Shown: positions 673 to 61,443 of the stretch, one piece after another
How the letters are laid out: each line of letters begins with the position of its first letter
How positions within the stretch are numbered: the stretch's first letter is position 1
Assembly (NCBI GenBank): GCA_902547315.1
Contig: CACCND010000002.1
Coordinates: forward strand, 9,609-73,608
Direction of reading: 5' to 3'
DNA: 64,000 nt
Source: an uncultured Pelagibacteraceae bacterium
GTDB taxonomy: Bacteria > Pseudomonadota > Alphaproteobacteria > Pelagibacterales > AG-422-B15
Notes under the pieces: generated by a model
Database searches by the model: none
What the model saw: only the letters and a program-made list of their open reading frames with translations
What the model was told of the DNA's origin: nothing
Made by a program: the position numbers and the translations under genes

Positions 673-1230
673 TTATCTTTCTAGTTGAATATCCCAATAT
701 AAAAAATCCATCCAGCTTTCATGCAAAAAGTTAGGTGGAAAAGATCGGCCACATTTATCTAAATCAGCCATTGTAGGTACTTTTGGAACATTGAGAGGCT
801 TCATACCTGAGTTTTTCAAAAGTTTTCCACCCTTTTTTACGTTACAACTTGAACAAGCTGTTACAATATTTTCCCAAGTTGTTTCTCCACCATGTGATCT
901 AGGTATAAGATGATCAAATGTTAAATCTTTCTTTGAACCACAATATTGACAACTAAACTTATCACGCAAAAAAACGTTAAATCTTGAGAATATTGGATTT
1001 CTGTTTGGCTTGATGTACGTTTTTAGACTAATAACGCTTGGTAAATACATTTGAAAACTTGGACTTCTAATTTCTCTTTCATAATTGGATACAATATTTA
1101 CTCTTCCAAGAACAACCGCTTTTACACTGTCTTGCCAGCACCACAAAGACAGCGGATAATGACTAAGAGGCCTGAAATCCGAATTTAGAACCAAAGCTGG
1201 ACATTTTTCTAAAGGAACTGCAATACTCAT
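673..1230 (-). CDS. Standalone HNH endonuclease-domain protein
   Basis: 'CQYCGSKKDLTFDHLIPRSHGGETTWENIVTACSSCNVKKG' is a complete HNH/zinc-finger nuclease motif. The stop abuts the coq7 stop with 0 nt spacer. Confidence 0.8.
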   Translation of the reverse strand: MSIAVPLEKCPALVLNSDFRPLSHYPLSLWCWQDSVKAVVLGRVNIVSNYEREIRSPSFQMYLPSVISLKTYIKPNRNPIFSRFNVFLRDKFSCQYCGSKKDLTFDHLIPRSHGGETTWENIVTACSSCNVKKGGKLLKNSGMKPLNVPKVPTMADLDKCGRSFPPNFLHESWMDFLYWDIQLER

Positions 1231-1274: not shown

Positions 1275-1928
1275 TTAATTTGAAAATTTTTCGACTAAGA
1301 ATTTAATTGCTATGTCTAAGCCGTCTTGAGCAATCGAATGCTGAGTGTTTGTAGAAATATGAGACTTAACATCTATACTCAATTGTGACAATTTTTTTTC
1401 AGCTTCAATAGTTTCTTGATAAGGAACCATAGGATCCATATCTCCATGAATTAGGTAAATTGGAGGTTTAGACTTTAATTCATTTTTAAGAAGTTCTGGA
1501 GCAATTAACCTTCCTGAAAAGCCAACAATTGCTCTCATTGAATTTTCTCTTCTAAGGCCGACATGTAAACTCATCATTGTGCCTTGACTGAAACCTACGA
1601 GCGCCAAATTATCATCACTTAACTCATAATTCTTAAGTTGTTCATCAATAAAATTATTAAGTGTGTCAGCTGCATTTAACACACCTTTCCAAATAGTTGC
1701 AGGATCACCCGATTGAAAATCAAACCATTGATATCCCATTGGGTTTAATCCACATTTTTCAGGTGCGTTAGGTGATAAAAAAACTGCATCGGGCATTTGA
1801 GGCTGAATATAATTAGCAAGGCCAATCAGATCATTGCCATCTGCGCCGTATCCGTGACAAAATATCACTAGTTTTGAAGGCTTTGAAGAGTCTTGAGGTT
1901 CTAAAACTGGTCCACTCAATATAGGCAT
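1275..1928 (-). CDS. Alpha/beta hydrolase, phospholipase/carboxylesterase (acyl-protein-thioesterase-like) family
   Basis: 217 aa. It has the nucleophile elbow 'GFSQG' and a late 'HGDMD'/'H' triad arrangement. The start overlaps the ecm stop (TAATG). Confidence 0.75.
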   Translation of the reverse strand: MPILSGPVLEPQDSSKPSKLVIFCHGYGADGNDLIGLANYIQPQMPDAVFLSPNAPEKCGLNPMGYQWFDFQSGDPATIWKGVLNAADTLNNFIDEQLKNYELSDDNLALVGFSQGTMMSLHVGLRRENSMRAIVGFSGRLIAPELLKNELKSKPPIYLIHGDMDPMVPYQETIEAEKKLSQLSIDVKSHISTNTQHSIAQDGLDIAIKFLVEKFSN

Positions 1929-3883
1929 TAAGATACTTTCCTCTCAACAATGCTCACAATATCACTCATTATATCTTTCAGCTGGTAATCCTTTGGAGTA
2001 TAAACTGCTTGTACTCCATATTTAATTAAGATCTTTTCATCTTCTGTTGGAATGATTCCTCCTACAATTACCGGTATATCATCCACTTTATTTTTTTTCA
2101 TTTCATTCATAATTTCTTCGACAAGCTGAACATGAGAACCGGACAAAATAGACAGTCCGATGATGTGTACATCTTCTTCAACAGATGATTTTACTATTTG
2201 TTCTGGTGTTAATCTAATTCCTTCGTATAGAACATCCATTCCACAATCACTCGCACTTACAGCAATTTGTTCGGCTCCACTAGAATGTCCGTCAAGGCCA
2301 GGTTTGCCTACAAGAAATTTAATTCTTCTTCCCATCTTATCTGACAATGATTCAACTCTTTTACGTATTGGACTGTAATCGTCATTATTGGAAGGTTGAA
2401 TATTAGTTATTCCAGTTGGTGCTTTGAATTCACCAAAAACATCACGAAGTACTTGAGACCATTCACCTGTTGTTACACCTGCTTTTGCAGCTATAATAGA
2501 AGCTTCCATTATATTTTTACCAGATTTTGCTGCTTCACTTAATTGATTTAAAGCGCTATCAACCTGTTTTTGATCTCTGTTTTGTCTCCAATCAACTACT
2601 GCTTTTACTTGTTCATTTTCAATTTTTGGATCAATTGTCTCTATGCCTCCATCATTTGATACAAGTGGTGACTCCTCAGTTTCAACATACTCATTAACTC
2701 CAACAACTATTTGCTCTTTATCGTTAATTCTTTTTAGCCTCTCTTTTTGAGAATTGACCAATTCTTGTTTTAAATAACCGCTTTCAACTGCAGCTACTGC
2801 ACCACCAATTGATTGAATATGATTAAATTCTTTCATCGCGATCTCTTTAAGGTTTTTAACCTTTTCATCAATTACTTCAGAACCATTGAATATATCGTCA
2901 AAATGCAGAAGATCTGTTTCATACGCAACAATTTGTTGTAATCTTAAGGACCATTGTTGATCCCATGGTCTTGGCAATCCCATTGCTTCATTCCAAGCTG
3001 GTAACTGAACTGCTCTTGCTCTTGCATCCTTTGAGAGAACAACGCCTAGCATTTCAATTAATATTCTATATACGTTGTTCTCAGGTTGTTGCTCAGTTAA
3101 TCCAAGGCTGTTTACTTGCATGCCGTATCTAAATCTCCTGTTTTTAGGATCCTTAACACCATATCTCTCTTTTGTAATTTCATTCCACAAAGATACAAAT
3201 GCTCTCATTTTACACATTTCAGTTATAAATTTGATTCCAGAATTAACAAAGAAGCTTATGCGCCCTACTACATTTTCAAATTGTTCCTCTGATAACACAT
3301 TTGAGGTTTTAACTTTATCAAGATAAGCAACAGCAATTGAAAGACCAAAAGCTAATTCCTGCTCTGGAGTTGCGCCCACTTCAACTAAATGGTAAGGACA
3401 TACATTGATTGGATTCCAATTTGGCATTTCTTTAAAAGTAAAAGTAATCACGTCTGAAATTATTTTTAAACTCGGATCAGGTGGGAGAATATATGTTCCT
3501 CTTGAGAGATATTCTTTTAAAACATCATTTTGAGTTGTCCCCCGTAATTTATCTCTGTCTATGCCCTGTTCATCTGCAACGGCTACATATAAACTCAGTA
3601 ACCATGCAGCTGTAGCATTAATGGTCATTGATGTATTCATTTTATCTAATGGAATTTGATTAAAGAGCGATCTCATGTCGCCAATATGACAAATTGGAAC
3701 ACCAACTTTACCAACCTCTCCTTTAGCGAGAATGTGATCGCTGTCATACCCAGTTTGAGTAGGTAAATCGAAAGCTACTGAAATACCTGTTTGACCCTTT
3801 GATAGGTTCTTCAGATAGAGTTCATTTGACTTTTTGGCAGACGAATGTCCTGCGTAAGTTCTTATGAGCCAAGGTTTATCCAT
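1928..3883 (-). CDS. ecm: Ethylmalonyl-CoA mutase (AdoCbl-dependent acyl-CoA mutase, MeaA/Ecm type, fused substrate and B12 domains)
   Basis: 651 aa. The N-terminus 'PWLIRTYAGHSSAKKSNELY..GQTGISVAFDLPTQTGYDSDH..GEVGKVGVP' matches the MeaA/Ecm subfamily as I recall it. The C-terminal B12 domain carries the DxHxxG motif 'DGHSSG'. It is divergent from ccr. Confidence 0.8.
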   Translation of the reverse strand: MDKPWLIRTYAGHSSAKKSNELYLKNLSKGQTGISVAFDLPTQTGYDSDHILAKGEVGKVGVPICHIGDMRSLFNQIPLDKMNTSMTINATAAWLLSLYVAVADEQGIDRDKLRGTTQNDVLKEYLSRGTYILPPDPSLKIISDVITFTFKEMPNWNPINVCPYHLVEVGATPEQELAFGLSIAVAYLDKVKTSNVLSEEQFENVVGRISFFVNSGIKFITEMCKMRAFVSLWNEITKERYGVKDPKNRRFRYGMQVNSLGLTEQQPENNVYRILIEMLGVVLSKDARARAVQLPAWNEAMGLPRPWDQQWSLRLQQIVAYETDLLHFDDIFNGSEVIDEKVKNLKEIAMKEFNHIQSIGGAVAAVESGYLKQELVNSQKERLKRINDKEQIVVGVNEYVETEESPLVSNDGGIETIDPKIENEQVKAVVDWRQNRDQKQVDSALNQLSEAAKSGKNIMEASIIAAKAGVTTGEWSQVLRDVFGEFKAPTGITNIQPSNNDDYSPIRKRVESLSDKMGRRIKFLVGKPGLDGHSSGAEQIAVSASDCGMDVLYEGIRLTPEQIVKSSVEEDVHIIGLSILSGSHVQLVEEIMNEMKKNKVDDIPVIVGGIIPTEDEKILIKYGVQAVYTPKDYQLKDIMSDIVSIVERKVS

Positions 3884-4017
3884 TGTTTTTCAACGTTTTT
3901 TTTTGGTTTTATTAAATCCTTTTGTTTAAAATGTATATACTAATCTAGCTAAAATGGCTATAAACCTAGAAAAAAGAAACATTAGTTTTATATTATCTAC
4001 ACTACAGGAGCAGATTT

Positions 4018-5253
4018 ATGACCACTGAAGAAAAAGATATTTATGCAATAGGTGAGGTTCCACCTCTTGGTTTTGTCCCTAAGAAAATGCACGCATGGGT
4101 AATCAGAAGAGATCGTCATGGAAACCCAATGCAATCATTTAAAGAAGAAGAATTTGATGTTCCTGAAGTTGGATCCAATGACGTTTTGATATTCGTAATG
4201 GCCGCGGGTGTAAACTATAATGGTGTTTGGGCTGGCCTTGGAAAACCTGTATCTACGCTTGATATGACTAAAAAAGACTATCACATTGCCGGTTCTGATT
4301 GTTCTGGGATAGTTTGGAAAGTTGGTTCTGGTGTAAAAAAATGGAAAGTGGGTGATGAGGTAATTATTCATGGTATGCAGTGGGATCATGAAGATGCTGA
4401 GGTTAATGGCGGTGAACCAATGATATCAAAAACAAATAAGGTCTTTGGTTACGAAACAGCAGATGGAACCTTTGCTCAGTTCACAGCTGTTCAAGCGCAC
4501 CAAGTTTTACGTAAGCCGCCAAATTTATCTTGGGAAGAAAGTGGTTGTTATATGCTGACTCTTGCAACCGCATATAGAATGCTATTTGGCCACGCTCCCA
4601 ATGAATTAAAGCCAGGTGAGTTTGTTTTAATATGGGGCGCATCGGGTGGTCTTGGAAGCATGGCAGTGCAACTTGCAAAAATTGTTGGCGCTAAACCAAT
4701 TGGTATTGTCTCTGATAACTCTAAAATTGATTATGTAAAAGATCTTGGAGCTGTAGGCGTTCTAAACAGAAAAGATTTTGATTGTTGGGGTGAACATCCT
4801 GATATTGATGACGCTGAAACATATGCAAACTACATGAAGGAAGTTAGAAAATTTGGTAAGGCCTTATGGGAATTTACAGGTAAGGGTAATAATGTTGACA
4901 TGGTATTTGAGCATCCGGGCGAAACTACCGTTCCTGTTTCGTGTTTTGTAGTAAAACCAGGAGGAATGGTTGTTATTTGTGCTGGTACGACAGGATATAA
5001 TCTCACATTAGATGCTAGATACCTATGGATGCAAAGTAAAAGACTTCAGGGTTCACACTTTGGAAATTCAAAGCAAGCAAATGCAGCAAATGAACTTGTT
5101 ATTGACGGCACATTAGATCCTTGTATGTCAGAGCTTTTTGCATGGAACAATATTCCTGATGCTCATGAAAAGATGCTTAACAATGAACATAAAGGCGGAA
5201 ATATGGCTGTCCTTGTTGGTGCTGCAAAAGAAGGACAAAAATCTCTAAACTAG
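4018..5253 (+). CDS. ccr: Crotonyl-CoA carboxylase/reductase
   Basis: 411 aa MDR-family enzyme. 'GEVPPLGFVPKKMHAWVIRR..VMAAGVNYNGVWAGLGKPVS..YHIAGSDCSGIVWKVG' is characteristic of Ccr. A GGAG-like RBS ('caggag') lies upstream. Confidence 0.85.
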   Translation: MTTEEKDIYAIGEVPPLGFVPKKMHAWVIRRDRHGNPMQSFKEEEFDVPEVGSNDVLIFVMAAGVNYNGVWAGLGKPVSTLDMTKKDYHIAGSDCSGIVWKVGSGVKKWKVGDEVIIHGMQWDHEDAEVNGGEPMISKTNKVFGYETADGTFAQFTAVQAHQVLRKPPNLSWEESGCYMLTLATAYRMLFGHAPNELKPGEFVLIWGASGGLGSMAVQLAKIVGAKPIGIVSDNSKIDYVKDLGAVGVLNRKDFDCWGEHPDIDDAETYANYMKEVRKFGKALWEFTGKGNNVDMVFEHPGETTVPVSCFVVKPGGMVVICAGTTGYNLTLDARYLWMQSKRLQGSHFGNSKQANAANELVIDGTLDPCMSELFAWNNIPDAHEKMLNNEHKGGNMAVLVGAAKEGQKSLN

Positions 5254-5263
5254 AAAGTTAAAC

Positions 5264-6919
5264 ATGCACGAACTAATTTCTAAATGTCAAAAATCTCTTA
5301 TTACAGTCGATAAGTATTACGATGCTGCCCTGCAACACGTAAGAGGTGAGTTAATTGTTAATGGAAGATTATCTCGTGATAATCTAGATAGAGAACAACA
5401 TGCTGCACATGGCTTATCTTGGGTTGCTGCATATAGAGCTACTTTGAAAGAAATGGTTAATTGGGCCTCAAACCTTGACTCGACCGGGACGTTTAATGAA
5501 ACAGAGCAATTAATTTTGCAAATCACTTTTTCGGAATACTGCGCGCAAATTAAATCTGGGATACCAATGTCACAACTAGAGTATGTTCGTCCCCAAGATT
5601 TAGGATTAAAAAATGGTCTTTTTCAAGAAACAGGGACTGAAGAATTTAATGATCTGATTTTGAATGGCAATAGTAATGTAGATCGCATGAAACTTGCTCA
5701 ATTATTAAAAGATGGATTTTCAAGTAAAAACTTTGGTAATAGCGGCCTAGATGAAACTGCATCAATAATTCAAGAACAATTTAGAAAATTTGTTGAAGAT
5801 GATGTGACGCCAAACGCTCATGAATGGCACCTCAAAGATAACCTTATTCCGATGTCAATAATTGAAAAAATGTCTGAACTTGGTGTATTTGGTCTGACGA
5901 TTCCTGAAGAATACGGTGGACTTGGAATGACAAGATTTGTTGACTGTGTGGTAACTGAGGAACTTGCAAGGGGTTATATTGGTATTGGCTCACTTGGTAC
6001 ACGCGGTGATATAGCTGCCGAATTACTGATTACAGGTGGCACTGAAGAACAGAAAAATAAATATTTACCGAAAATTGCATCTGGTGAAATACTTCCATGT
6101 GCTGTATTAACCGAACCTCATTCAGGATCTGATATGGGCTCATTCAAAACAAGAGCAGTTGCTAATGGAGAGCACTATACAATCACAGGAAACAAGACAT
6201 GGGTTACACATGGAGCTAGAAGTGACGTGATGATGTTATTAGCACGTACGAATCCTGATGAAAAAGGCTACAAAGGTCTATCAATGTTCCTTGCTGAAAA
6301 ACAGAGGGGTGATGACGATAATATGTTCCCTGATGAGGGAATAAGTGGTGGCGAAATCGAAGTTTTAGGCTACAGGGGTATGAAAGAGTACGAAATGGCT
6401 TTTGATGGCTTTAAAGTTAAAAAAGGAAATCTACTTGGTGAAAAGGAAGGAAATGGCTTCAAACAAATGATGGAAACTTTTGAAGCAGCTCGTATACAAA
6501 CTGCAGCTAGAGCACTGGGTGTAGCACAATCAGCTTTTGAAACTGCAATGCAATATGCAATAGATAGACTAGATACAAATGGCGGTTCGCTGTATGACAA
6601 GCCTAGAAATGCATCAAAAATTGTTTCTATGGCTACTGAGATTATGGCTGCAAGACAATTAACTTATTATGCTGCAAGAGAAAAAGACAAAGGACACAGA
6701 TGTGATTTGGAAGCAGGAATGGCAAAAATGTTGGCTGCCAGAGTTGCTTGGGCATGCGCAGATAACGGAGTCCAAATCCATGGGGGTAATGGGTTCGCGC
6801 TTGAGTATCCAATAAGTAGGATTTTATGTGACTCTAGAATTTTAAATATATTTGAGGGAACTGCAGAAATACAGGCTGACATTGTAACACGTCGACTTGT
6901 TTCTACGAACCCCGCTTAA
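5264..6919 (+). CDS. mcd: (2S)-methylsuccinyl-CoA dehydrogenase-like acyl-CoA dehydrogenase with about 170-aa N-terminal extension
   Basis: 551 aa against about 380 aa for ordinary ACADs. The ACAD core runs from about residue 170 ('GLTIPEEYGGLG', 'TEPHSGSD', 'IFEGTAEIQ'). It lies 10 nt downstream of ccr. Confidence 0.75.
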   Translation: MHELISKCQKSLITVDKYYDAALQHVRGELIVNGRLSRDNLDREQHAAHGLSWVAAYRATLKEMVNWASNLDSTGTFNETEQLILQITFSEYCAQIKSGIPMSQLEYVRPQDLGLKNGLFQETGTEEFNDLILNGNSNVDRMKLAQLLKDGFSSKNFGNSGLDETASIIQEQFRKFVEDDVTPNAHEWHLKDNLIPMSIIEKMSELGVFGLTIPEEYGGLGMTRFVDCVVTEELARGYIGIGSLGTRGDIAAELLITGGTEEQKNKYLPKIASGEILPCAVLTEPHSGSDMGSFKTRAVANGEHYTITGNKTWVTHGARSDVMMLLARTNPDEKGYKGLSMFLAEKQRGDDDNMFPDEGISGGEIEVLGYRGMKEYEMAFDGFKVKKGNLLGEKEGNGFKQMMETFEAARIQTAARALGVAQSAFETAMQYAIDRLDTNGGSLYDKPRNASKIVSMATEIMAARQLTYYAAREKDKGHRCDLEAGMAKMLAARVAWACADNGVQIHGGNGFALEYPISRILCDSRILNIFEGTAEIQADIVTRRLVSTNPA

Positions 6920-6925
6920 TTTTAT

Positions 6926-7129
6926 ATGCCAGGTTTTTTATATTACTTATTAATTCCTATATCGCTTCTTGCTGTTTTAGCCGTTTTAGGTACAGGTATT
7001 TATGCCATGTTTAAAGGTGGAGAATTTAATAAAAAGTACTCAAATAAACTTATGAGACTTAGAATTACTCTACAGTTTATTGCGATTGTAATAATTATGA
7101 GTGCTCTTTACTTTTCAACTAATTCTTAA
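6926..7129 (+). CDS. Twin-transmembrane-helix small protein (HIG1-domain-like)
   Basis: 67 aa with two hydrophobic helices separated by 'KGGEFNKKYSNKLMRLRITLQF', resembling the bacterial HIG_1_N family. The stop overlaps the pduO start (TAATG). Confidence 0.6.
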   Translation: MPGFLYYLLIPISLLAVLAVLGTGIYAMFKGGEFNKKYSNKLMRLRITLQFIAIVIIMSALYFSTNS

Positions 7130-7692
7130 TGGTAAAACTCAATAAAATTTATACAAGGGCCGGTGATAAAGGCAAAACAGGACTTGTATCTGGGAAACGT
7201 GTATTTAAGGATAATATAAGAATAAAAGCATACGGAACTGTCGATGAACTGAATTCTATACTTGGAATTTTAAACACGAGTGCCAAATCATCTTTGAAAA
7301 AAATAATTTCAGAAATACAAAATGACTTATTTGATTTAGGTGCTGATCTCGCAACTCCAGTTGAAAAAGAACCAAAATATAAACCGCTACGCGTTACAAG
7401 CAATCAGGTTACAAGAATTGAAAAAACAATTGACAAATATAACGCAAAGTTAGCACCCCTTAATTCTTTTGTGCTACCGGGAGGGTCTAAGTCTGCGGCA
7501 TTTTTACACAATGCAAGAACTGTAACGCGCCGAGCCGAAACTCAGATTGTCGCACTCGCAAAAAAAGAAGAAGTCAACGAAGAAGCAATTAAATATATCA
7601 ATCGGTTATCAGATTTATTTTTTGTTTTATCAAGAGCTGAGAACAACAATGGCAAAAAAGATGTTTTGTGGAAACCTGGTAAGAATGTATAA
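7129..7692 (+). CDS. pduO: ATP:cob(I)alamin adenosyltransferase, PduO/MMAB type
   Basis: 187 aa. The N-terminal 'KIYTRAGDKGKTGL' signature and overall length fit PduO-type ATR. Confidence 0.85.
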   Translation: MVKLNKIYTRAGDKGKTGLVSGKRVFKDNIRIKAYGTVDELNSILGILNTSAKSSLKKIISEIQNDLFDLGADLATPVEKEPKYKPLRVTSNQVTRIEKTIDKYNAKLAPLNSFVLPGGSKSAAFLHNARTVTRRAETQIVALAKKEEVNEEAIKYINRLSDLFFVLSRAENNNGKKDVLWKPGKNV

Positions 7693-7734
7693 TTTATGTT
7701 TACTCAACAAAAAAGATATTATAACAAATAAACA

Positions 7735-8484
7735 ATGAAAATTTTAGTCCCAGTTAAAAGAGTTATTGATCCGTACGTTAACATCAGAGTTAAATCTGAT
7801 CAAACTGGTGTTGAAACTGAAAATGTAAAAATGTCTATGAACCCCTTTTGTGAAATTGCAGTTGAAGAGGCAATTAGATTAAAAGAAGCTGGTAAAGCTG
7901 AAGAAATCATCGCCGTTTCAATCGGCAATCAATCTTGTCAAGAGACTATTCGAACGGCGCTTGCAATGGGAGCTGATCGAGGAATACATGTGCTCACAGA
8001 AGAAAAAGTTGAGCCTATTTCAATTGCAAAAATTCTAGCAAAAATTTGTGAAAGCGAGTCACCTGGACTAGTGATATCCGGAAAGCAAGCGATTGATGGA
8101 GACAACAATCAAACTGGTCAAATGCTTGCTGCACTAACAGATATGCCTCAAGGAACGTTTGCTTCAAAAGTTGAAATCGACGGCGACAAGGTTAAAGTCA
8201 CTAGAGAAATAGACGGAGGTTTACAAACTGTAAATCTGAATATGCCAGCTATTATTACCACCGATTTAAGATTGAATGAACCTAGATATGCTTCACTGCC
8301 TAATATTATGAAAGCTAAAAAGAAACCAATTGATCAAAAATCTCCTGACGACTATGGAGTTGACGTTACACCTAGAGTAAGTATTTTAAAAGTTATTGAG
8401 CCTCCAAAGCGTCAGGCTGGAATCAAAGTCGAGAATGTTGGAGATCTTGTAGAAAAATTAAAAAATGAGGCAGGAGTTATATGA
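7735..8484 (+). CDS. etfB: Electron transfer flavoprotein beta subunit
   Basis: 249 aa. '[18 protein letters not shown]' and '[17 protein letters not shown]' are classic EtfB. There is a 4-nt overlap with etfA. Confidence 0.9.
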
Positions 8485-9410
8485 CATCACTTTTTTATAT
8501 AGAGCATGCAAACGGAAAGATCAGCGATCAAAGTTTAAAAGCTATAACAGCAGCGTCTCAAATTGAAGGCGATGTTCACGGACTTATTGTGGGCTCAAAT
8601 ATTGATGAAGCTGTTGTGGAGGCTTCAAAAATTAATGGATTGAGTAAATTACTCCACTTGGATGATGCAGCATTTGATAATGTTTTGGCTGAAAAACTTA
8701 CTCAAGTCATTTTTAATATTGCTGGAGATTATGACTACTTTTTGGCTGCAGCAACAACAACTGGTAAAAATGTGATGCCTAGACTTGCTGCCAAACTTGA
8801 TGTTTCTCAAATATCGGAGATCGTAGCTGTTGAAAGCGCAGATACATTTATTAGAACAATTTATGCTGGTAACGCTATTGCAACTGTACAAACATCTGAC
8901 GCTAAGAAAGTTCTCACGGTTAGACCTACTGCTTTCAAAGCTGCAACAACTGACTCTGCTGAATGTGAGGTTGCAAAGATAAATGCTGAGAATATTCCAT
9001 CAATTTCAGAATTTGTGGGCGAAGAGCTAACAAAATCTGATAGGCCAGAACTTACTTCTGCAAAGACAATTATTTCAGGCGGACGTGGAATGCAAAATGG
9101 AGAAAATTTTGAACTTTTGGATAAAGTAGCTGAAAAACTTGGAGCTGCTGTTGGAGCATCTCGAGCTGCCGTTGATGCAGGCTTTGTTCCAAATGATTAT
9201 CAAGTTGGACAAACTGGTAAAGTTGTAGCACCCGAACTGTATATAGCGGTCGGAATATCTGGAGCAATTCAGCACTTGGCTGGTATGAAAGACTCAAAAA
9301 TTATAGTAGCCATAAATAAAGATGAAGAAGCGCCTATATTTGATGTAGCAGACTATGGTTTGGTAGCAGACTTGTTTCAAGTTCTTCCTGAGTTAGAACA
9401 AGCCTTATAA
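8481..9410 (+). CDS. etfA: Electron transfer flavoprotein alpha subunit
   Basis: 309 aa. The C-terminal FAD domain reads '[49 protein letters not shown]'. Confidence 0.9.
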
Positions 9411-20594: not shown

Positions 20595-20603
20595 AATTTT
20601 CTC

Positions 20604-23450: not shown

Positions 23451-24607
23451 TTTTTAAAGGCTTCTTTAGTTGTTAAGTAAGCCCAATCAATCCAAGGTAG
23501 AACAAGCTCAACATTTTTATTTTCAACTGTTGAGCCACCCCATATTCTAATTCCCGGTGGTGCCGTTTTATAGGAGTTTAGATCATATCCTGCTTCATTG
23601 CTTTCAAGCAATGAACAAACTTCCTTCATAAAATTTACTTTGTCTTCGTCATTAAGAGATTTAAACCACTCATCCTTTGGAAGTATACAAATTGAAGTAC
23701 AAGATCTGGTCTCTGGATCTTTAGCAAGAAATTCGAAATTATCATGCTTATCAATCCAATTATTAACTAATTTTAAATTTGTTTCAGATATATCAATTAA
23801 TTTATTTAAACCACCTGACTCTATGCCCCAGTTAAGAGAATTTAATACATCTTCCACACTGATCATAGATGGGGTATTTATTGTTACTCCAGAAAATATT
23901 CCTGAAATTAATTTTTGGTTATTTGCTAGGCGAAAAATTTTTGGGATGGGCCATGGTGGGGTGAAAGTTTCAAGCCTTTCAACTGCTCGAGGCGATAAAA
24001 TCAACATACCATGGGCAGCTTCGCTTCCTAAAACTTTTTGCCATGAGTAAGTAACCACATCTAATTTATGCCAATCCATGTGCATTGAAAATACTGCAGA
24101 TGTGGCATCACATATTGTTAATCCTTTTCTTTGATCACTTATCCAATCAGTATTTTTTATTCTTACTCCTGCGGTAGTACCATTCCATGTAAAAACAATG
24201 TCGTTGTCAGGATTGCTATCAGAAAAATCAGGAAGTTCCCCATATTCGGCTTTAATTAACTTTTTATCTTTTAGAGGCAGCTGTTCTCCTGCGTCTATAT
24301 TCCAGTCATGACCAAAATTTTCCCATGAATAAACTTCAACTCCTCTTTGACCAAGCATACACCACATAGCCATTTCAACAGCGCCAGTATCAGATGCAGG
24401 AACAATACCAATTAAGTAGTCATCAGGGATTTCCAACAGTTGTCTTGATTTATCAATTACCTCTTGAAGTTTTTTAACAGCTGCTCCAGATCTGTGAGAC
24501 CTTGAAAGAGCTGCATTTTTTAAATTATCAAACGACCATCCTGGAGGTTTGGCGCAGGGACCAGATGAAAAATAAGGATAATGAGGCTTCTGAGCAGGCT
24601 TTTCCAT
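23447..24607 (-). CDS. serC: Phosphoserine aminotransferase
   Basis: 'PYFSSGPCAKPPGW' is the N-terminus typical of the alphaproteobacterial SerC type. I trimmed the start to the ATG at 24607, because the longer track ORF would overlap the upstream gene. Confidence 0.85.
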   Translation of the reverse strand: MEKPAQKPHYPYFSSGPCAKPPGWSFDNLKNAALSRSHRSGAAVKKLQEVIDKSRQLLEIPDDYLIGIVPASDTGAVEMAMWCMLGQRGVEVYSWENFGHDWNIDAGEQLPLKDKKLIKAEYGELPDFSDSNPDNDIVFTWNGTTAGVRIKNTDWISDQRKGLTICDATSAVFSMHMDWHKLDVVTYSWQKVLGSEAAHGMLILSPRAVERLETFTPPWPIPKIFRLANNQKLISGIFSGVTINTPSMISVEDVLNSLNWGIESGGLNKLIDISETNLKLVNNWIDKHDNFEFLAKDPETRSCTSICILPKDEWFKSLNDEDKVNFMKEVCSLLESNEAGYDLNSYKTAPPGIRIWGGSTVENKNVELVLPWIDWAYLTTKEAFKK

Positions 24608-24611
24608 TAAA

Positions 24612-25826
24612 TTAAATATCCATAAGCAAATTAACCAAGCCATCAGCTGGCTTCGGATCAAAGTAAGTTGACTTTTTAGGGACAATCTTACCTTTGTCTG
24701 CGATGGACATTATCTTTTTCATCGGTAAAGGGCAAATAAAAAATCCTATATCTGCCACACCTTTATCCACTTCATTCGCTAACTTTTTATGATCAAATTT
24801 GCCAGGAATATTCGACAAATTTACTAAAGAACAATTACATTGTTTTTTAATGATACTATTTATCATTATTTTCTCAACTATGTCAGTGTCAGTTTCATAT
24901 TTAGTATAGAGTTTTTTGTTTGATGTGAGTGAAACGTTGTACCAAGTTTTATTTAAATATACCATCACGCTGCCTGGGTCACACGGATTTTTAAATTTTA
25001 ATTTTTTTTCTAGCTTAAACTTTTTCTGTAAGGCCTGAATTATTTTTTGTTGGTTAAAATTTTTAAATTTAGCTAGTCGATGAAAGCTCAATATATTGAC
25101 AGAATGCTCATCAAATATTGCCGCAAGAAGGTTTATTTTTTCTTTTTTATTTTTATTAAGATTTTTCTTTTTATTTAAATTTTCAATGGCGGAGTACCTG
25201 TGATGCCCATCAGCAATATAAAATTTTTGAATTTTTGATAATTTCTTTCTCAAAGATTGAATTTCATTTTTTTCACTTACTTTCCAAAGAGATCTAGTTG
25301 TACCGCCTGGCGACTTAAATTTATAAAGAGGTTTTTTTCTTTCGTATTTTTTAAAATCAATGGGTCTACTATTTTGATTTTTATAGGATAAATAAACTGG
25401 ACCTATTTGCATTTTTGTATGTTCAATTGTTTCCATAATAGAATTCGATCGTGCTTTGAATATTGCTTCATGTTTCAGGATTTTGTTATTCCCTTCCTCG
25501 AACTCTATTGATGCAACTATACCAAACTGCTTCTTATTATATTTATCTAAACAATATACATAAAAACATTCTTCCTTCTCCTGAAAAATAATATTATTCT
25601 TTATCATAGACTCTAAGTGCTCGTATGCGTGCTTTTTAGAATTTTTTTTGGTAATGTTAGGGTAAAATGCTTTTGGGCTTACTACATTTAAGAAATTATA
25701 TTCTGACTCTTTTAAAATTTTATTTAGCTGTTTGTTCGTTAAATTATCAAAAGTTGGCAATACCACTTCCTCTACTCTTTTCTGTAAAGGCCTAAAGGCT
25801 TTGAATGGTTTTATTGATAAGGTCAT
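24612..25826 (-). CDS. DUF1015 family protein (unknown function)
   Basis: 404 aa. 'IKPFKAFRP', 'LKHEAIF' and 'YIADGHHRY' match DUF1015 hallmarks. It is the first gene of the serC-serA-gpmA string, 4 nt from serC. Confidence 0.8.
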   Translation of the reverse strand: MTLSIKPFKAFRPLQKRVEEVVLPTFDNLTNKQLNKILKESEYNFLNVVSPKAFYPNITKKNSKKHAYEHLESMIKNNIIFQEKEECFYVYCLDKYNKKQFGIVASIEFEEGNNKILKHEAIFKARSNSIMETIEHTKMQIGPVYLSYKNQNSRPIDFKKYERKKPLYKFKSPGGTTRSLWKVSEKNEIQSLRKKLSKIQKFYIADGHHRYSAIENLNKKKNLNKNKKEKINLLAAIFDEHSVNILSFHRLAKFKNFNQQKIIQALQKKFKLEKKLKFKNPCDPGSVMVYLNKTWYNVSLTSNKKLYTKYETDTDIVEKIMINSIIKKQCNCSLVNLSNIPGKFDHKKLANEVDKGVADIGFFICPLPMKKIMSIADKGKIVPKKSTYFDPKPADGLVNLLMDI

Positions 25827-40629: not shown

Positions 40630-41547
40630 GTGAGTAATCAAGTTAAAGAATGCTTTCATGATTGGATTGAGAATTTACAGAAAGTAAGAAACTTAAGTGA
40701 CAATACGCTTACAAGCTACAAAAATGACATTGAAAAATTTTTAATTTTTTCAAAGGATCATTTTGGGGGGAACTTATCAATACGTGATCTTGATAGTATG
40801 CAAATTTCTGACTTCAGAAGTTTTTTATCTTTTTTAAGAAATCGAGGCATTGGAAATACATCCATTGCACGAATGATATCATCATTAAAATCTTTTTTTA
40901 ATTTCTTAGTAAAGAATGAAAAAATAAAAAATAGTACGATACAATCTTTAAAATCTCCAAAAACAAAAAAGTCTTTGCCCAGACCAATTTCAGCTGATCT
41001 TGCAATTGAAGCTATTAAATACTCACAAGAAATTGAAAAAGAGAAATGGGTAGGATTACGAAATAAGTCAATCCTTATGCTTTTATATGGATGCGGATTA
41101 AGAATATCTGAGGCATTAAATTTAAATTATGAAGATATTAATGATAATGAATATTTGGTCATTAGAGGAAAAGGCAATAAAGAAAGACTCGTGCCTTTAA
41201 TGAAATTTATCAAGCACGAAATAAAAGAATATATAAAAGAGTGTCCAAAAGGTTTTGAAAACGGTGATCCACTTTTTTTAGGTAAAAGAATGAATCGTCT
41301 TAGTCCGAGAATTATTCAATATACTTTGGAAAAAATCAGACATAATTTGTCTTTACCTGAAACTGCAACCCCGCATGCGTTGAGACATAGTTTTGCTACA
41401 CATTTGCTGGATTCAGGTGGAGACCTGAGAACAATTCAGGAATTATTAGGACATAGCAGTCTTTCCACAACTCAAAGATATACCAAAGTTGAAACTGAGC
41501 GGCTATATGAAGCATATTCAAAAACCCATCCGCTTGCTAAGAAGTAA
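40630..41547 (+). CDS. xerC: Tyrosine site-specific recombinase XerC/XerD
   Basis: 305 aa with a GTG start. 'GLRISEAL', 'HALRHSFATHLL' and 'LLGHSSLSTTQRYT' give the R..HxxR..Y catalytic set. The C versus D assignment is uncertain. Confidence 0.8.
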   Translation: MSNQVKECFHDWIENLQKVRNLSDNTLTSYKNDIEKFLIFSKDHFGGNLSIRDLDSMQISDFRSFLSFLRNRGIGNTSIARMISSLKSFFNFLVKNEKIKNSTIQSLKSPKTKKSLPRPISADLAIEAIKYSQEIEKEKWVGLRNKSILMLLYGCGLRISEALNLNYEDINDNEYLVIRGKGNKERLVPLMKFIKHEIKEYIKECPKGFENGDPLFLGKRMNRLSPRIIQYTLEKIRHNLSLPETATPHALRHSFATHLLDSGGDLRTIQELLGHSSLSTTQRYTKVETERLYEAYSKTHPLAKK

Positions 41548-58471: not shown

Positions 58472-60430
58472 TTATTTTTTTCTTGGAATTAAAGCCCAAT
58501 AATCAAGACTTAACAAAACGGACGGATCAAAACGCTTGTTACTATCTTGGTGTTGAAACTGATAAGCCTGCGCATCACCAATTCCATTTGTTCTGATTCG
58601 AATAGCACCTAATGATTCTGATACTTCGACTTTGTCTAAAATCAGACTCCAGGCAAAAACAGTTGTTCCTGCAAAACACGGTGATGCGTGGGTTCCACCG
58701 TTGATCGCGATAATTTTGAAAGCATTTGAAAGTCCATTAAATGATAAAGCTCTTGTTAAACTTATAACGTGACCACCGTAAACAATTCTTTTTCCAAACC
58801 TGCCACCTTTTTCAACAAAATGGTTAAAGTGAACTTTAGCATTATTCTGATATAATTTTGTTGCCATCATATGTTCAGCTTCTTCAACTGTCATACCGTC
58901 AATATGATTTATTTTTTCATTAATAGAATAATCCTCATAACAAAGATCAGAGCCTGAAGCTTTATAATCATATCCTGTACAATCAAAATCATATTTTTTT
59001 GCAATTTCTACAACCTCCTCACTTGTAAGCTCTTTTTTTAATTCAGGTATTGACGGTTCTGCTTTATTTAGATTTCTATTTTTTTTTCTTACCATAACCC
59101 ATCTTTTATAATCAATAACTGGTTCGTCATGCTGGTTAGTGCCTACAGAGTGAACATAAACTACTCCATTTTCTCCACTTGAATTCTCTTTAATGCCAAT
59201 CACTTCTGAAGTTGAGCTAATTGTATCACCTGAATAAACTGGCTTTAAAAACTTGCACTCTGCGTAGCCTAAATTGGCAATTGCATTTAAAGAGATATCG
59301 GGGACAGTTTTACCAAAAGCTATATTAAATAAAAGAAAATCGTCAATTGGTGATTTTTCTAATGAGAGTTTTTTTGCAAACTCATCTGAGCAGTGCAGGG
59401 CGTACCTTGAACCGTATAAAGCCGTATAAAGTGCACAATCTCCATATGTTATTGTTCGTGGAGTTGCATGTATTATTTTTTGTCCTAGCTTAAAATTTTC
59501 AAAAAAGTTACCAATTTTATATTTACTCGAAGAAGTTTGTAAAACTTCTGATTGATCTAGTTCTGTAACTTTTGAAACAAGCAATTCTGCTTCTATAATT
59601 CGTTTTGCATGATTTACGTGCAATTCCTCTATCTGACTGCCTTCAAACGTAATTACTCCAACATTTGGATCCTTTTTTCTTGCATCCTCAAAGGCTGCAA
59701 CAATTCGTTTTGCTTTGTCTAGTTGTTCAGCCGTAGGGGTGAATATTTTATTACATATTTGTATTTGTCCCGGGTGTATTAAGGTTTTACCATCAAATCC
59801 GAGGCCATGACTATAGATGCACTCTTCTTCAAATCCATTTGCATCTCTGATGTCATTAAAAACTCCGTCAAGTAGTGATAATTTGTAGGCTTTTGTTGCC
59901 ATCATACATTTCTCAAAACTTGTGACTAATGCAGTTCTTTTTAGTTCTTCCTCTATACCCAACTCTGCAGACAAGTCATTTGTCCCCATCACAAAACATT
60001 TTAAGTATTTTGATGACTTTGCAATATCATATGCGTTTACAATGGATAAAGCCGTTTCCATCATAACCCAAATCTTAGTTTCTTTATTTTTAAGATATTT
60101 TTCAAAAGCTTTAACATCCTTAGCTTCATTTACTTTAGGAATTAATATTGCGTCAGGATTACATTTGTCTAAGACCTTAATATCTATTTTACCATCATCG
60201 GTATCCAAGGCATTTACTCTTATCACCTGTTCCTTATTTTTGTTTACACCAGAATTTATAATTTCAATAATTGCTGTACGTGCATCATTTCTGGCGTTTG
60301 CGGCTACCGAGTCTTCTAAGTCGTAAATAATTGCATCTACATCAAGCGTACTACTTTTTTTTAATGCTTTTGGATTAGATCCAGGAACATAAAGTATACT
60401 TCTTCTTGGTTTTCTTACATCTTGTCTCAT
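58472..60430 (-). CDS. Fusion protein: N-terminal HpcH/CitE-like (malyl-CoA/beta-methylmalyl-CoA or citramalyl-CoA) lyase + C-terminal double hot-dog MaoC-type enoyl-CoA hydratase (mesaconyl-CoA/itaconyl-CoA hydratase-like)
   Basis: Residues 1 to about 285 carry 'RRSILYVPGSNP', 'DLEDSV', 'RVNAL', 'METALS', 'GTNDLSAEL' and 'IHPGQI', the CitE/HpcH fold. Residues from about 300 to 652 form two hot-dog halves, including the MaoC-like 'VHFNHFVEKGGRFGKRIVYGGHVISL'. It is one uninterrupted frame, and its start overlaps the asd stop by 4 nt. Confidence 0.75.
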   Translation of the reverse strand: MRQDVRKPRRSILYVPGSNPKALKKSSTLDVDAIIYDLEDSVAANARNDARTAIIEIINSGVNKNKEQVIRVNALDTDDGKIDIKVLDKCNPDAILIPKVNEAKDVKAFEKYLKNKETKIWVMMETALSIVNAYDIAKSSKYLKCFVMGTNDLSAELGIEEELKRTALVTSFEKCMMATKAYKLSLLDGVFNDIRDANGFEEECIYSHGLGFDGKTLIHPGQIQICNKIFTPTAEQLDKAKRIVAAFEDARKKDPNVGVITFEGSQIEELHVNHAKRIIEAELLVSKVTELDQSEVLQTSSSKYKIGNFFENFKLGQKIIHATPRTITYGDCALYTALYGSRYALHCSDEFAKKLSLEKSPIDDFLLFNIAFGKTVPDISLNAIANLGYAECKFLKPVYSGDTISSTSEVIGIKENSSGENGVVYVHSVGTNQHDEPVIDYKRWVMVRKKNRNLNKAEPSIPELKKELTSEEVVEIAKKYDFDCTGYDYKASGSDLCYEDYSINEKINHIDGMTVEEAEHMMATKLYQNNAKVHFNHFVEKGGRFGKRIVYGGHVISLTRALSFNGLSNAFKIIAINGGTHASPCFAGTTVFAWSLILDKVEVSESLGAIRIRTNGIGDAQAYQFQHQDSNKRFDPSVLLSLDYWALIPRKK

Positions 60431-61443
60431 TTAGATAAATGTTCCTCAATTAGCATTTCAGCGATTTGGATTGTATTTAAAGCAGCTCCTTTCCTTAAAT
60501 TATCAGAAACTACCCAAATAGATAATCCATTTTTTGTAGACGTATCCTCTCGAATTCGTGAAACATATGTGTCATCATTTCCAGCACACTCTTTTGGAGT
60601 TACATAACCCCCATCAGCTCTTTCATCAAGAAGTGTACACCCAGGAGCATTTTTAATAGCTTCACGTGCTTCTTCTACTGAAATTTTGTTTTCAAACTCA
60701 ATATTTACAGCTTCAGAGTGACCAATAAATACAGGAACGCGAACACATGTAGCGCTAAAGCTGATCTCATTACTTAAAATTTTATGAGTTTCTTGTCTCA
60801 TTTTTAATTCTTCTTTTGTGTATCCATCATCCATGAATTTATCAATATGAGGTATGACATTAAAGGCAATTGGTTTAGTAAACTTAACATTATCTTTAAT
60901 CTCATCAGAGAACATATTTTTTGTTTGCTCAAACAACTCGTCCATACCAGCCTTACCTGCACCCGAAACAGATTGATAAGTTGATACAATAACTTTTTTT
61001 ATTTTTGAAATTTCGTGCAATGGTTTTAAGGCAACCACCAATTGAATTGTTGAGCAGTTTGGATTAGCAATTATATTTCTTTTTTTATAATTATTTAGAT
61101 CACTTGGGTTAACCTCAGGCACGACCAAAGGAATATCTTCTTCCATTCTAAAATGACTAGAGTTATCTATAACAATACAATTTTTTTCTGCAAACTTTGG
61201 TGCCCATTCCTCTGAGGTACTAGCTCCTGCGGAGAAGAGTGCCAATTCTACTTTTGAAGGATCAAACTTTTCAATAGATTCTACAATTAGTTTATCCTCC
61301 CCAAATTCAATTTCCATGCCTTCACTTCTACTAGAAGCTACAGGAAATATTTTTGACGCATCATATTTTTTTTCAGAGAGAATATTTAACATTTCTCTTC
61401 CAACATTTCCTGTGGCACCCACTATAGCAATATTAAAATTCAT
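60427..61443 (-). CDS. asd: Aspartate-semialdehyde dehydrogenase
   Basis: 338 aa with 'IAIVGATGNVGREM', the active-site 'NPNCSTIQ' and 'SGAGKAGMDEL'. Confidence 0.9.
   Translation of the reverse strand: MNFNIAIVGATGNVGREMLNILSEKKYDASKIFPVASSRSEGMEIEFGEDKLIVESIEKFDPSKVELALFSAGASTSEEWAPKFAEKNCIVIDNSSHFRMEEDIPLVVPEVNPSDLNNYKKRNIIANPNCSTIQLVVALKPLHEISKIKKVIVSTYQSVSGAGKAGMDELFEQTKNMFSDEIKDNVKFTKPIAFNVIPHIDKFMDDGYTKEELKMRQETHKILSNEISFSATCVRVPVFIGHSEAVNIEFENKISVEEAREAIKNAPGCTLLDERADGGYVTPKECAGNDDTYVSRIREDTSTKNGLSIWVVSDNLRKGAALNTIQIAEMLIEEHLSK

Follow-up and report, generated by a model that had tools for sequence, protein, structure and literature searches.

The window analysed here, a 64-kb stretch of Pelagibacteraceae (SAR11) DNA, contains a single open reading frame that runs from a CitE-like domain into a MaoC-like hydratase. 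The question it raises is which two reactions are joined in this polypeptide, and whether they are neighbours in one pathway. Public annotation names the protein only as an "aldolase/citrate lyase family protein" or as "2-methylfumaryl-CoA hydratase", and pathway reconstructions that rely on these one-sided names therefore miss one of the two activities.

The open reading frame and its domains

The fused reading frame, its parts and its immediate neighbours are located as follows.

58472..60430, minus strand: whole fused open reading frame, 652 amino acids plus TAA stop (58472-58474), ATG start, frame uninterrupted in the open reading frame list
59576..60430, minus strand: N-half, residues 1-285, CitE-like TIM-barrel plus C-terminal lid, Mcl2-type by Pfam, NJ tree and signature residues
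59975..59980, minus strand: Asn151-Asp152 codons AAT GAC; Asp152 is a Mg2+ ligand, Asn151 stands in place of the MCL-invariant Ala167
59627..59629, minus strand: Glu268 codon GAG, at the position of catalytic Asp299 in the R. sphaeroides lyase (MCLR); a hallmark of the thioesterase cluster
59525..59575, minus strand: inter-domain linker, residues 286-302, hypervariable in the junction alignment and without an internal start codon
58475..59524, minus strand: C-half, residues 303-652, Mch, double hot-dog by PDB alignments and Pfam
60427..60430, minus strand: 4-nt ATGA overlap of the fusion start codon with the asd stop codon (the plus strand reads TCAT)
60427..61443, minus strand: asd, upstream neighbour, from the open reading frame list and Pfam Semialdhyde_dh on the syntenic gene in L083
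55157..58423, minus strand: sdhCDAB, downstream neighbours; sdhC begins 48 nt after the fusion stop codon

The N-half carries the motifs RRSILYVPGS (residues 9-18), YDLEDSV (36-42), GTNDL (149-153) and LIHPGQ (217-222), and Pfam HpcH_HpaI scored 146 bits on residues 10-220 (cutoff 25). On the other side of the linker, MaoC_dehydratas scored 53.5 bits on residues 315-426 (gathering cutoff 27) and MC_hydratase 43.9 bits on residues 296-601 (gathering cutoff 26.5). When the whole fusion was modelled with AlphaFold2, residues 10-285 reached a pLDDT of ~80-94, and residues 289-307, in and just past the linker, fell below 50, consistent with disorder. The pLDDT of the C-half was mostly 25-70, from an alignment that is shallow there and covered by SAR11 fusions only; its double hot-dog fold is inferred from PDB alignments, not from the AlphaFold2 model.

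The original prediction had described a single polypeptide in which a CitE-like domain is followed by a complete MaoC double-hot-dog hydratase, with no stop or frameshift in its frame, and had proposed Pfam searches as a check. Each of these points is borne out: the open reading frame list, Pfam and the PDB alignments agree on one 652-aa protein, all three Pfam families score above cutoff, including a MaoC hot-dog domain in the C-terminal half, and the frame is intact in every Pelagibacteraceae locus compared (39 of 39). The earlier account of the ATGA overlap with asd (bases 60427-60430) and of sdhCDAB as the next genes downstream (sdhC 48 nt on) was also correct.

The C-half is a full-length Mch by homology

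Residues 303-651 of the C-half aligned end to end with residues 7-351 of 4e3e (E 1.1e-127), and the C-half likewise aligned end to end with residues 5-348 of 8hgn, a "beta-methylmalyl-CoA dehydratase" (E 4.2e-116). Both are solved double-hot-dog hydratases; against single-hot-dog enzymes the C-half gave only E ~1e-13. Compared with Mch genes at 38 alphaproteobacterial and Chloroflexales loci, its identity is 50-58%. Homology identifies the C-half as a full-length mesaconyl-C1-CoA hydratase / beta-methylmalyl-CoA dehydratase (Mch), the assignment that had been favoured earlier and to which the full-length PDB alignments and Pfam scores both point.

The N-half groups with Mcl2 rather than Mcl1

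An insertion after beta-strand 6 is described as MCL-specific by Zarzycki and Kerfeld (PMC3832036). In the N-half this region is 25 residues long, compared to 42 in MCLR and 49-51 in Chloroflexus-type MCLs; its residues 156-174 match residues 171-212 of 5ugr, and the MCL insertion of ~30-40 residues is absent. At the position of Ala167 (MCLR numbering), which is 100% conserved in both MCL clusters, the N-half has Asn151, and all of the Mcl2-like proteins examined have Asn or Ser. Side chains bigger than Ala at 167 have been argued to hinder the binding of propionyl-CoA and beta-methylmalyl-CoA (PMC3832036). In the C-terminal lid, Glu268 occupies the position of the catalytic Asp299; this Asp is otherwise universal in CitE-like enzymes, and its replacement by Glu is reported only for the R. 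sphaeroides malyl-CoA thioesterase (Mcl2) and its cluster (PMC3832036). The same Glu was present in the SAR11 fusions of the tree alignment (4/4), in the thioesterase-annotated proteins (6/6) and in the "upstream-of-mch" proteins (15/15), and it was invariant in an alignment of 30 sequences, of which 12 were fusions and 18 Mcl2-like proteins. The N-half retains the Mg2+-binding and catalytic residues E39, D40, R71, E125 and D152, which correspond to E44, D45, R76, E141 and D168 of MCLR, and all five are invariant across the same 30 sequences.

A phylogeny had been proposed earlier as a check on the N-half. In an NJ tree, the N-half shared a clade, at a bootstrap support of 100/100, with all "upstream-of-mch" proteins and with those annotated as (3S)-malyl-CoA thioesterase or malyl-CoA thiolesterase; the Mcl2 clade is defined here by names from UniRef, JGI or NCBI, the R. 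sphaeroides Mcl2 sequence itself being absent from the tree. Mcl1 (4l9y, 5ugr) falls in another clade together with the Chloroflexus-type MCLs, and CLYBL and RipC also fall apart from the N-half. Within the Mcl2 clade the branch of SAR11 and P0124 is basal, sister to all other Mcl2-like sequences, and could therefore have diverged in function. The N-half is 36-43% identical to Mcl2-like proteins and 37.5% identical to M. extorquens Mcl. A true citrate lyase beta subunit was also considered; TIGR01588 scored 195.6 bits against a cutoff of 443.4, and the gene is flanked by asd and sdhC instead of citD or citF.

At the level of family, sequence assigns the N-half to the Mcl2 cluster. Because it lacks the MCL insertion, has Asn for Ala167 and Glu for Asp299, and lies in a separate clade, its reading as an Mcl1 is not supported. 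The fused steps are not consecutive unless the N-half has gained lyase activity. By homology, the fusion would combine an Mcl2-type enzyme with Mch, pathway steps n and n+3. The claim of two consecutive steps, which depended on reading the N-half as Mcl1, is not upheld: the three MCL signatures are missing and the clade stands apart from Mcl1 at 100/100.

Ethylmalonyl-CoA (EMC) pathway genes in the window

The window contains the following genes, in agreement with the earlier statement that ccr, ecm, mcd and phaAB lie in the same 64 kb (the ecm and phaB genes as an ecm-like mutase and a phaB-like SDR).

1928..9410, mixed strands: EMC gene cluster
1928-3883, minus strand: ecm-like B12 mutase, 651 aa
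4018-5253, plus strand: ccr, TIGR01751, 558 bits (cutoff 378.6)
5264-6919, plus strand: mcd, E 1.3e-201 to 6es9, N-terminal extension included
7129-7692, plus strand: PduO-type adenosyltransferase
7735-9410, plus strand: etfB and etfA
19872-20594, minus strand: phaB-like short-chain dehydrogenase (SDR)
20604-21776, minus strand: phaA thiolase

Search for a separate MCL-type lyase

No second CitE-like or MaoC-like gene was found in the window, within 10 kb on either side of each of the 39 SAR11 loci, or in 10-kb extensions beyond the window ends, and no MCL-type gene lies in the ~84 kb covered around the fusion. A scan of metagenome contigs for the motif DGPFGDF, which is specific to Mcl1, used an AT-biased pattern and returned 82 MCL-type loci. 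One MCL-type cluster is from Pelagibacteraceae and lies in an mcl-mtkA-mtkB-ppc operon; others were named Gammaproteobacteria, Ca. Thioglobus or unclassified Alphaproteobacteria. Judged by its sequence, a true MCL-type lyase gene exists in Pelagibacteraceae. No genome with both the fusion and the mcl-mtkAB-ppc operon was found among the assembly accessions compared. The MCL-bearing single-cell genome has a codon GC3 of 0.18-0.19, lower than the window lineage (~0.23-0.24) but near the 77%-identity fusion group (~0.20), a comparison that is only suggestive as to whether the two genes co-occur.

Proposed function of the fusion

The best explanation, to which we assign a probability of about 0.62, is that the locus carries a SAR11 fusion of coupled EMC genes, a predicted Mcl2-type malyl-CoA thioesterase and an Mch hydratase. 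The C-half would hydrate mesaconyl-C1-CoA, supplied by the Mcd encoded in the window, to (2R,3S)-beta-methylmalyl-CoA. The N-half, with its catalytic residues intact, most likely hydrolyses (3S)-malyl-CoA to malate and CoA, which would be the last and irreversible step of the EMC pathway. Two intervening reactions, the cleavage of beta-methylmalyl-CoA and the joining of glyoxylate to acetyl-CoA, would fall to a separate MCL-type lyase. The benefit of such a fusion may lie mainly in fixed 1:1 co-expression and in one gene fewer in a streamlined genome rather than in direct substrate channelling. CitE-like enzymes are trimers and Mch is a dimer, so the fusion may form a higher-order assembly.

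It is doubtful, though it deserves weighing, that the N-half is instead a lyase and that the fused protein turns mesaconyl-CoA into glyoxylate and propionyl-CoA in consecutive steps, possibly with channelling. Such a role would fit the CitE superfamily positions for metal binding and for general acid/base catalysis, all of which are intact, the near-equal identities to M. extorquens Mcl and to Mcl2-like proteins, and the basal place of the SAR11 branch. The surroundings of the fusion could be read in the same direction: no separate MCL gene occurs within ~84 kb and none is tied to a fusion-bearing genome, and in a genome without an MCL the N-half would have to be the lyase. Dual chemistry is also known in the superfamily, as human CLYBL acts both as lyase and as thioesterase. 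Haloarchaeal CitE-like enzymes do the same (PMC3832036). A reverse-order fusion of Mch with an MCL-type domain, P0130, exists, so a hydratase-lyase fusion is selectable. However, the missing insertion, the Asn and the Glu all lie on the thioesterase side, and the residue at 167 is of the size argued to hinder propionyl-CoA and beta-methylmalyl-CoA (PMC3832036). The gene pair is moreover orthologous to the mcl2-like and mch pairs of EMC-type alphaproteobacteria, and a bona fide MCL gene is present in Pelagibacteraceae.

A promiscuous Mcl2-derived N-half with both lyase and thioesterase activity, comparable to the haloarchaeal enzymes and human CLYBL, which would let one protein of these streamlined genomes run the end of the EMC pathway from mesaconyl-CoA to malate, seems quite improbable. 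If true, mesaconyl-CoA would pass through beta-methylmalyl-CoA to glyoxylate and propionyl-CoA, glyoxylate would be condensed with acetyl-CoA on the way to malate, and a trimer-by-dimer assembly might keep the glyoxylate sequestered.

The original prediction had also mentioned the Ich/Ccl pair. The protein would then serve itaconate or citramalate degradation, with an Ich-like itaconyl-CoA (or mesaconyl-C4-CoA) hydratase joined to a Ccl/CLYBL-like citramalyl-CoA lyase, and would yield pyruvate and acetyl-CoA. CLYBL and RipC are among the PDB matches to the N-half, and NCBIfam gave weak matches to RipC_Ccl (159.7 bits) and RipB_Ich (96.7 bits). Both fall well short of the equivalog cutoffs (375 and 340, respectively), however, and the alternative is abandoned as very improbable: the C-half matches beta-methylmalyl-CoA dehydratase structures over its full length (E ~1e-116 to 1e-127), CLYBL and RipC lie outside the N-half clade and have Asp at the Asp299 position, and the ccr, ecm and mcd of the window make mesaconyl-C1-CoA.

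Conservation and origin of the fusion

Identity across the 39 SAR11 loci with an intact frame is 77-99%, and the fusions form three sequence groups, at 99%, 83% and 77% identity, drawn from single-cell and metagenome-assembled genomes. The fusion is carried by more than 120 clusters (90% identity) and by hundreds of metagenome contigs; the cluster of the window itself has 746 members. Where dS could be estimated (1.5-3.2, saturated in some comparisons), dN/dS was 0.03-0.09 in both halves, and it was ~0.7-1.4 in the linker. These ratios point to strong purifying selection on both halves and near-neutral evolution of the linker. In the junction alignment, the start codon of the former mch is gone. 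The 652-aa open reading frame is a real, conserved fusion. That the read-through reflects an error in sequencing or assembly or a merger of two genes by a recent pseudogenising mutation, or that one half is a decaying non-catalytic remnant, has next to no probability and is already refuted by population data: the clusters include some members annotated as truncated or as 355 aa long, and an apparent fusion elsewhere (L082/P0142) resembles a frameshift artefact, but the frame is intact in all 39 independent SAR11 genomes and in hundreds of contigs, dN/dS is at most 0.09 in both halves, the catalytic residues are all conserved, and no start codon remains where mch once began.

The survey of fused and split genes proposed earlier gave a clear division, fused in all 39 SAR11 loci and split in 23 other alphaproteobacterial loci, where the same two genes are adjacent and in the same order. 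In four of these 23 (L040, L042, L043 and L056), mch starts in frame 0-12 nt past the stop codon. The gene order leuB-asd-...-mcl2-like-mch-sdhCDAB-...-mdh recurs in Rhodospirillales and other alphaproteobacterial loci, so that the placement between asd and sdhCDAB, previously called odd, is not unusual. The closest relative, P0124, is 56% identical to the N-half, and the gene after it encodes an Mch of 355 aa with 69% identity to the C-half; its locus has the identical context, leuCDB-asd before the pair and sdhCD after it, and a junction that reads TAG-ATTA-ATG, a 4-nt gap. P0142, an apparent fusion of ~50% identity, was set aside as a frameshift artefact; it comes from a noisy 68% GC long-read contig on which the adjoining sdhA is also broken.

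The unfused adjacent pairs, together with the 4-nt gap at the same locus in P0124, indicate that the fusion arose by stop-codon loss at the ancestral location. The stop codon and 4-nt spacer between a translationally coupled mcl2-type gene and mch were lost, leaving a linker of ~15 residues free of sequence constraint. The fusion is specific to the SAR11 (Pelagibacteraceae) lineage and is a new domain architecture made from known families.

Significance

SAR11 carbon metabolism is usually described via the glyoxylate shunt. The fusion, together with ccr, ecm, mcd and phaAB, indicates that an abundant SAR11 lineage has an EMC route for C2/C4 assimilation; the exact COQ7 protein of the window was found in 2,475 blocks of the sequence collection. 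No description of the fusion or of the EMC pathway in SAR11 was found in the full text of the literature searched, an absence that is not proof. The split (L079) and fused (window) states of one locus offer a clean natural case of streamlining in which two translationally coupled genes lost the stop codon that separated them. The fusion also lets one ask whether the Asp-to-Glu and Ala-to-Asn replacements set hydrolase versus lyase chemistry in CitE-like enzymes, a determinant left open in PMC3832036, where the structures do not explain why Mcl2 is a hydrolase rather than a lyase.

Comparison with known systems

R. sphaeroides offers the nearest described counterparts. Its Mcl2 is a (3S)-malyl-CoA thioesterase according to Erb et al. 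2010, as cited in PMC3832036 and PMC2948502. The cluster of this Mcl2 and the N-half share the Glu-for-Asp replacement, a length of ~285 aa and the lack of the MCL insertion, and the C-half corresponds to a full-length Mch such as that of R. sphaeroides. In many alphaproteobacteria the Mcl2 and Mch genes are neighbours beside sdh genes, as in the SAR11 locus. The described systems and all 23 non-SAR11 loci encode Mcl2 and Mch as separate proteins, whereas they form one polypeptide in SAR11, and the N-half, whose activity is predicted, differs from Mcl2-like proteins in its low identity and basal branch.

The MCL/Mcl1 lyases, which cleave malyl-CoA and beta-methylmalyl-CoA reversibly, share with the N-half the CitE-like TIM-barrel superfamily, the Mg2+ ligands and the Arg, at 34-37.5% identity, and in Chloroflexales (L055) mcl lies directly upstream of mch. 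They have the insertion, Ala167 and Asp299, however, and the N-half has none of the three and belongs to another clade. Human CLYBL, Yersinia RipC and M. tuberculosis Rv2498c are of similar size and align to the N-half in one continuous stretch with no MCL insertion, but they lie outside its clade, have Asp at the Asp299 position and are 28-29% identical. P0130 (725 aa, metagenome locus L081, 55% GC) is also one polypeptide with an Mch-type double hot-dog and a CitE-like half. Its order is the reverse of that in SAR11, with the hydratase first, and in its CitE-like half, which belongs to the Chloroflexus MCL type, the insertion, the Ala and the Asp are all present; its sequence marks it as a real fusion of a predicted hydratase and lyase, of independent origin.

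The fused gene and its conservation

58472-60430, minus strand: fused ORF of 652 aa

Both the single 652-aa frame and the motifs quoted in the original prediction are present in the ORF listing, and its domain assignments were borne out by Pfam, where HpcH_HpaI (residues 10-220, 146 bits), MaoC_dehydratas (residues 315-426) and MC_hydratase (residues 296-601) all scored above their gathering cutoffs. The window is AT-rich (34% GC). In a scan of species-representative genomes, the same full-length gene was found at 77-99% identity in 39 records whose titles name Pelagibacteraceae or Pelagibacterales (SAR11), with the frame uninterrupted in 39/39. In the protein database the fusion protein forms more than 120 clusters at 90% identity, the window's own cluster having 746 members. 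Where dS could be estimated among three fused sequence groups, dN/dS was 0.03-0.09 for each half, values limited by a high and partly saturated dS; for residues 286-302 it was ~0.7-1.4. The intact frames, cluster counts and dN/dS show that the fusion is a real, selectively maintained gene, predicted to be expressed as one. Assembly error as its source is ruled out by the frame kept in every SAR11 record and the low dN/dS.

Genomic placement and origin

The start of the fusion overlaps the asd stop codon as ATGA, in agreement with the coupling originally predicted, and sdhC starts 48 nt past the fusion stop codon. The prediction had called this placement odd; the gene order leuB-asd-...-mcl2-like-mch-sdhCDAB-...-mdh recurs in several Rhodospirillales loci, however, so the placement is ancestral.

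In the proposed survey of fused versus split genes, all 39 SAR11 records were fused. Outside SAR11 the pair was unfused, with both genes adjacent and in the same order, at 23 loci from Rhodospirillales, Rhizomicrobium, Hyphomicrobiales, Magnetospirillaceae, a Rhodobacteraceae genome and others. Coupling between the split genes is tight. At four split junctions (L040 ~10862, L042 ~1882, L043 ~6623 and L056 ~1943) the mcl2-like and mch genes share a frame, with one stop codon and a further 0-12 nt between them; one substitution or stop-codon read-through would give a fused protein. In locus L049 the mcl2-like stop and mch start codons overlap. The nearest relative of the N-terminal half, the split protein P0124 (287 aa, 56% identical), is encoded on 33% GC marine contigs in the same context as the fusion, leuC-leuD-leuB-asd-(287 aa)-(355-aa Mch, 69% identical)-sdhC-sdhD, with the junction TAG-ATTA-ATG between P0124 and Mch. 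In fused genes the stop codon, spacer and start codon have given way to a polar, hypervariable linker about 15 residues long, and no start codon for an independent Mch is left in the junction alignment. The junction layout is common to all fused groups, a pattern indicative of one fusion event in SAR11, in which loss of the stop codon, spacer and start codon between coupled genes would have given rise to the linker.

Pathway context

1928-3883, minus strand: 651-aa ecm-like B12 mutase, scoring under the equivalog cutoff for methylmalonyl-CoA mutase and lacking the first ~80 residues of that enzyme
4018-5253, plus strand: ccr, crotonyl-CoA carboxylase/reductase (TIGR01751, 558 bits; cutoff 378.6)
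5264-6919, plus strand: mcd, 551-aa acyl-CoA dehydrogenase, full-length match to 6es9 including the N-terminal extension (E 1.3e-201)
7129-9410, plus strand: PduO-type adenosyltransferase, etfB and etfA
19872-21776, minus strand: phaB-like SDR and phaA thiolase

We take 6es9 to be the P. denitrificans methylsuccinyl-CoA dehydrogenase. All of the predicted neighbours (ecm, ccr, mcd and phaAB) were found, the first as an ecm-like gene and phaB as a phaB-like SDR, and they indicate that an ethylmalonyl-CoA (EMC) route ending in mesaconyl-CoA is encoded in the window, so that Mch has a substrate. Positions 1928-9410 and 19872-21776 hold a near-complete EMC gene set in SAR11 (ecm-like, ccr, mcd, PduO-type, etfBA and phaAB), and no description of this pathway in SAR11 was found in the full-text literature searched. 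This is a very abundant lineage: the collection lists the exact COQ7 protein of the window in 2,475 blocks.

Other features of the window

673-1230 and 1275-1928, minus strand: HNH-endonuclease-like ORF region between coq7 and the ecm-like gene
23447-24685 / 24612-25826, minus strand: 412-aa TTG-start ORF overlapping the end of a DUF1015 gene by 74 nt
40630-41547, plus strand: tyrosine recombinase (Phage_integrase and SAM-like N-terminal domain) between transaldolase and fatty-acid hydroxylase genes

The HNH-like ORF has a partial, sub-threshold match to the IscB HNH region (46.8 bits; cutoff 175). On a near-identical contig (L204, 10529-11575) it is cut down to 125 aa, and the esterase gene next to it is absent, indicating a small indel polymorphism in the coq7/ecm-like interval. 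The 412-aa ORF has no Pfam match, and its listed start is probably too far upstream. The recombinase is presumably a housekeeping XerC/XerD.

Identity of the two halves

The assignment of the hydratase half to Mch was upheld. Over residues 303-651 there are end-to-end alignments with PDB 4e3e (MaoC-domain dehydratase, E 1.1e-127) and 8hgn (deposited as beta-methylmalyl-CoA dehydratase, E 4.2e-116). Matches to single-hot-dog hydratases are confined to the first 145 residues of this half (E about 1e-13). Identity to mch of other alphaproteobacteria and of one Chloroflexales metagenome-assembled genome is 50-58%. By homology, the C-terminal half is Mch.

For the N-terminal half, three discriminators are available from Zarzycki & Kerfeld (PMC3832036). 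After beta-strand 6, MCLs carry a specific insertion about 30-40 residues long. At position 167 (R. sphaeroides Mcl1 numbering) Ala is 100% conserved in the two MCL clusters, and bulkier side chains there are argued to impede propionyl-CoA and beta-methylmalyl-CoA binding. Catalytic Asp299 is conserved across the CitE-like superfamily and malate synthases; only the R. sphaeroides malyl-CoA thioesterase and its cluster have Glu instead.

Discriminating features in the alignment
Feature; SAR11 N-terminal half; MCLs
Insertion-region residues; 25; 42-51
Ala167 position; Asn151; Ala
Asp299 position; Glu268; Asp

All three place the SAR11 half on the thioesterase side, with the Mg2+ ligands and Arg (E39, D40, R71, E125, D152) intact. 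The same pattern occurs in every protein directly upstream of mch in other alphaproteobacteria and in six Rhodobacteraceae-type proteins named (3S)-malyl-CoA thioesterase or malyl-CoA thiolesterase. In a neighbour-joining tree (100 bootstraps), SAR11 N-terminal halves and Mcl2-like proteins form one clade (100/100), the SAR11 branch being basal within it, and Mcl1 and Chloroflexus-type MCLs form a separate clade; the thioesterase references are database-named proteins other than authentic R. sphaeroides Mcl2, their names being homology transfers. A CitE-like domain is therefore fused to Mch, as predicted, but its reading as Mcl1 is contradicted by the missing insertion, Asn151, Glu268 and the tree, and by homology the half is of the Mcl2 (thioesterase) type.

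In the EMC pathway (PMC2948502), Mch hydrates mesaconyl-CoA, Mcl1 cleaves beta-methylmalyl-CoA, Mcl1 condenses glyoxylate and acetyl-CoA, and Mcl2 hydrolyses malyl-CoA. Where two consecutive steps had been predicted, the hydratase step stands, and by homology the fusion joins the first of these four reactions to the last.

Search for an MCL-type lyase

No MCL-type gene was found in the window, in the 10 kb adjoining each of its ends, or in the sequence flanking the fusion at the 39 SAR11 loci. Metagenomes scanned with an AT-biased DNA pattern for DGPFGDF, a motif specific to Mcl1, yielded 82 MCL-type loci. The largest cluster (34 loci, 27-34% GC, operon mcl-mtkA-mtkB(-ppc)) includes a protein named by NCBI as CoA ester lyase of Pelagibacteraceae bacterium / Ca. 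Pelagibacter sp. and a single-cell contig (GCA_902569405.1), so SAR11 does carry a bona fide MCL, on contigs not tied to a fusion-bearing genome. Other AT-rich clusters were named Gammaproteobacteria, Ca. Thioglobus or unclassified Alphaproteobacteria. Because the SAR11 MCL is not placed in a fusion-bearing genome, we give the reading of the fusion as thioesterase plus hydratase a probability of about 0.6, and consider it unlikely that the N-terminal half is, or is also, the lyase, as originally claimed.

The mcl-mtkA-mtkB-ppc operon (MCL-type malyl-CoA lyase, malate-CoA ligase and PEP carboxylase) is serine-cycle-like and occurs in Pelagibacteraceae single-cell or metagenome-assembled genomes (L208 10001-15714, L209 10001-15722; also L131, L091, L162 and L164). 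It could supply glyoxylate from malate. It adjoins amtB and genes with glutamine-synthetase-like, GATase, GXGXG and Glu_synthase domains, a set that we take to resemble the N-methylglutamate pathway. An AT-rich marine alphaproteobacterium (L087, contig MDTG01216391.1, GC 0.29) is a distant relative, its proteins being 31-62% identical in amino-acid sequence to those of the window. It has the phaB-phaA / argH-lysA neighbourhood too and encodes nearby an R. sphaeroides-type Mcl1 (Mcl-like gene, 7723-8715), a gene absent from the corresponding position in the window.

Comparison with known systems

When representatives of 1.84 billion protein clusters were searched, the SAR11 cluster was alone among the best 150 matches in having this architecture over the full length. 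An apparent mcl2-mch read-through on a 68% GC long-read contig (L082 4178-6110, ~42% identity), where sdhA is also fragmented, is most likely a frameshift error and cautions against counting fusions from noisy long-read assemblies. Each half of the SAR11 protein belongs to a known family, and what is new is a domain architecture variant, for which streamlining of two coupled genes is the best explanation. It is of interest chiefly for SAR11 carbon metabolism, for annotation and as a natural test of what makes a CitE-like enzyme a lyase or a hydrolase. One other fused architecture was seen, P0130, and neither fusion was described in the literature searched.

L081 163-2340, 55% GC metagenome contig: P0130, 725 aa, with an MCL-type lyase domain after an Mch-type hydratase

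Unlike the MCLs, the SAR11 N-terminal half lacks the insertion and has Asn for Ala167 and Glu for Asp299; Mcl1, Chloroflexus-type Mcl, CLYBL, RipC and Rv2498c all carry Asp at the last position. In contrast to the SAR11 fusion, P0130 has the reverse domain order and a Chloroflexus-type MCL domain with the MCL insertion, Ala167 and Asp299, which makes it a true hydratase-lyase fusion in a single polypeptide; the two fusions are independent.
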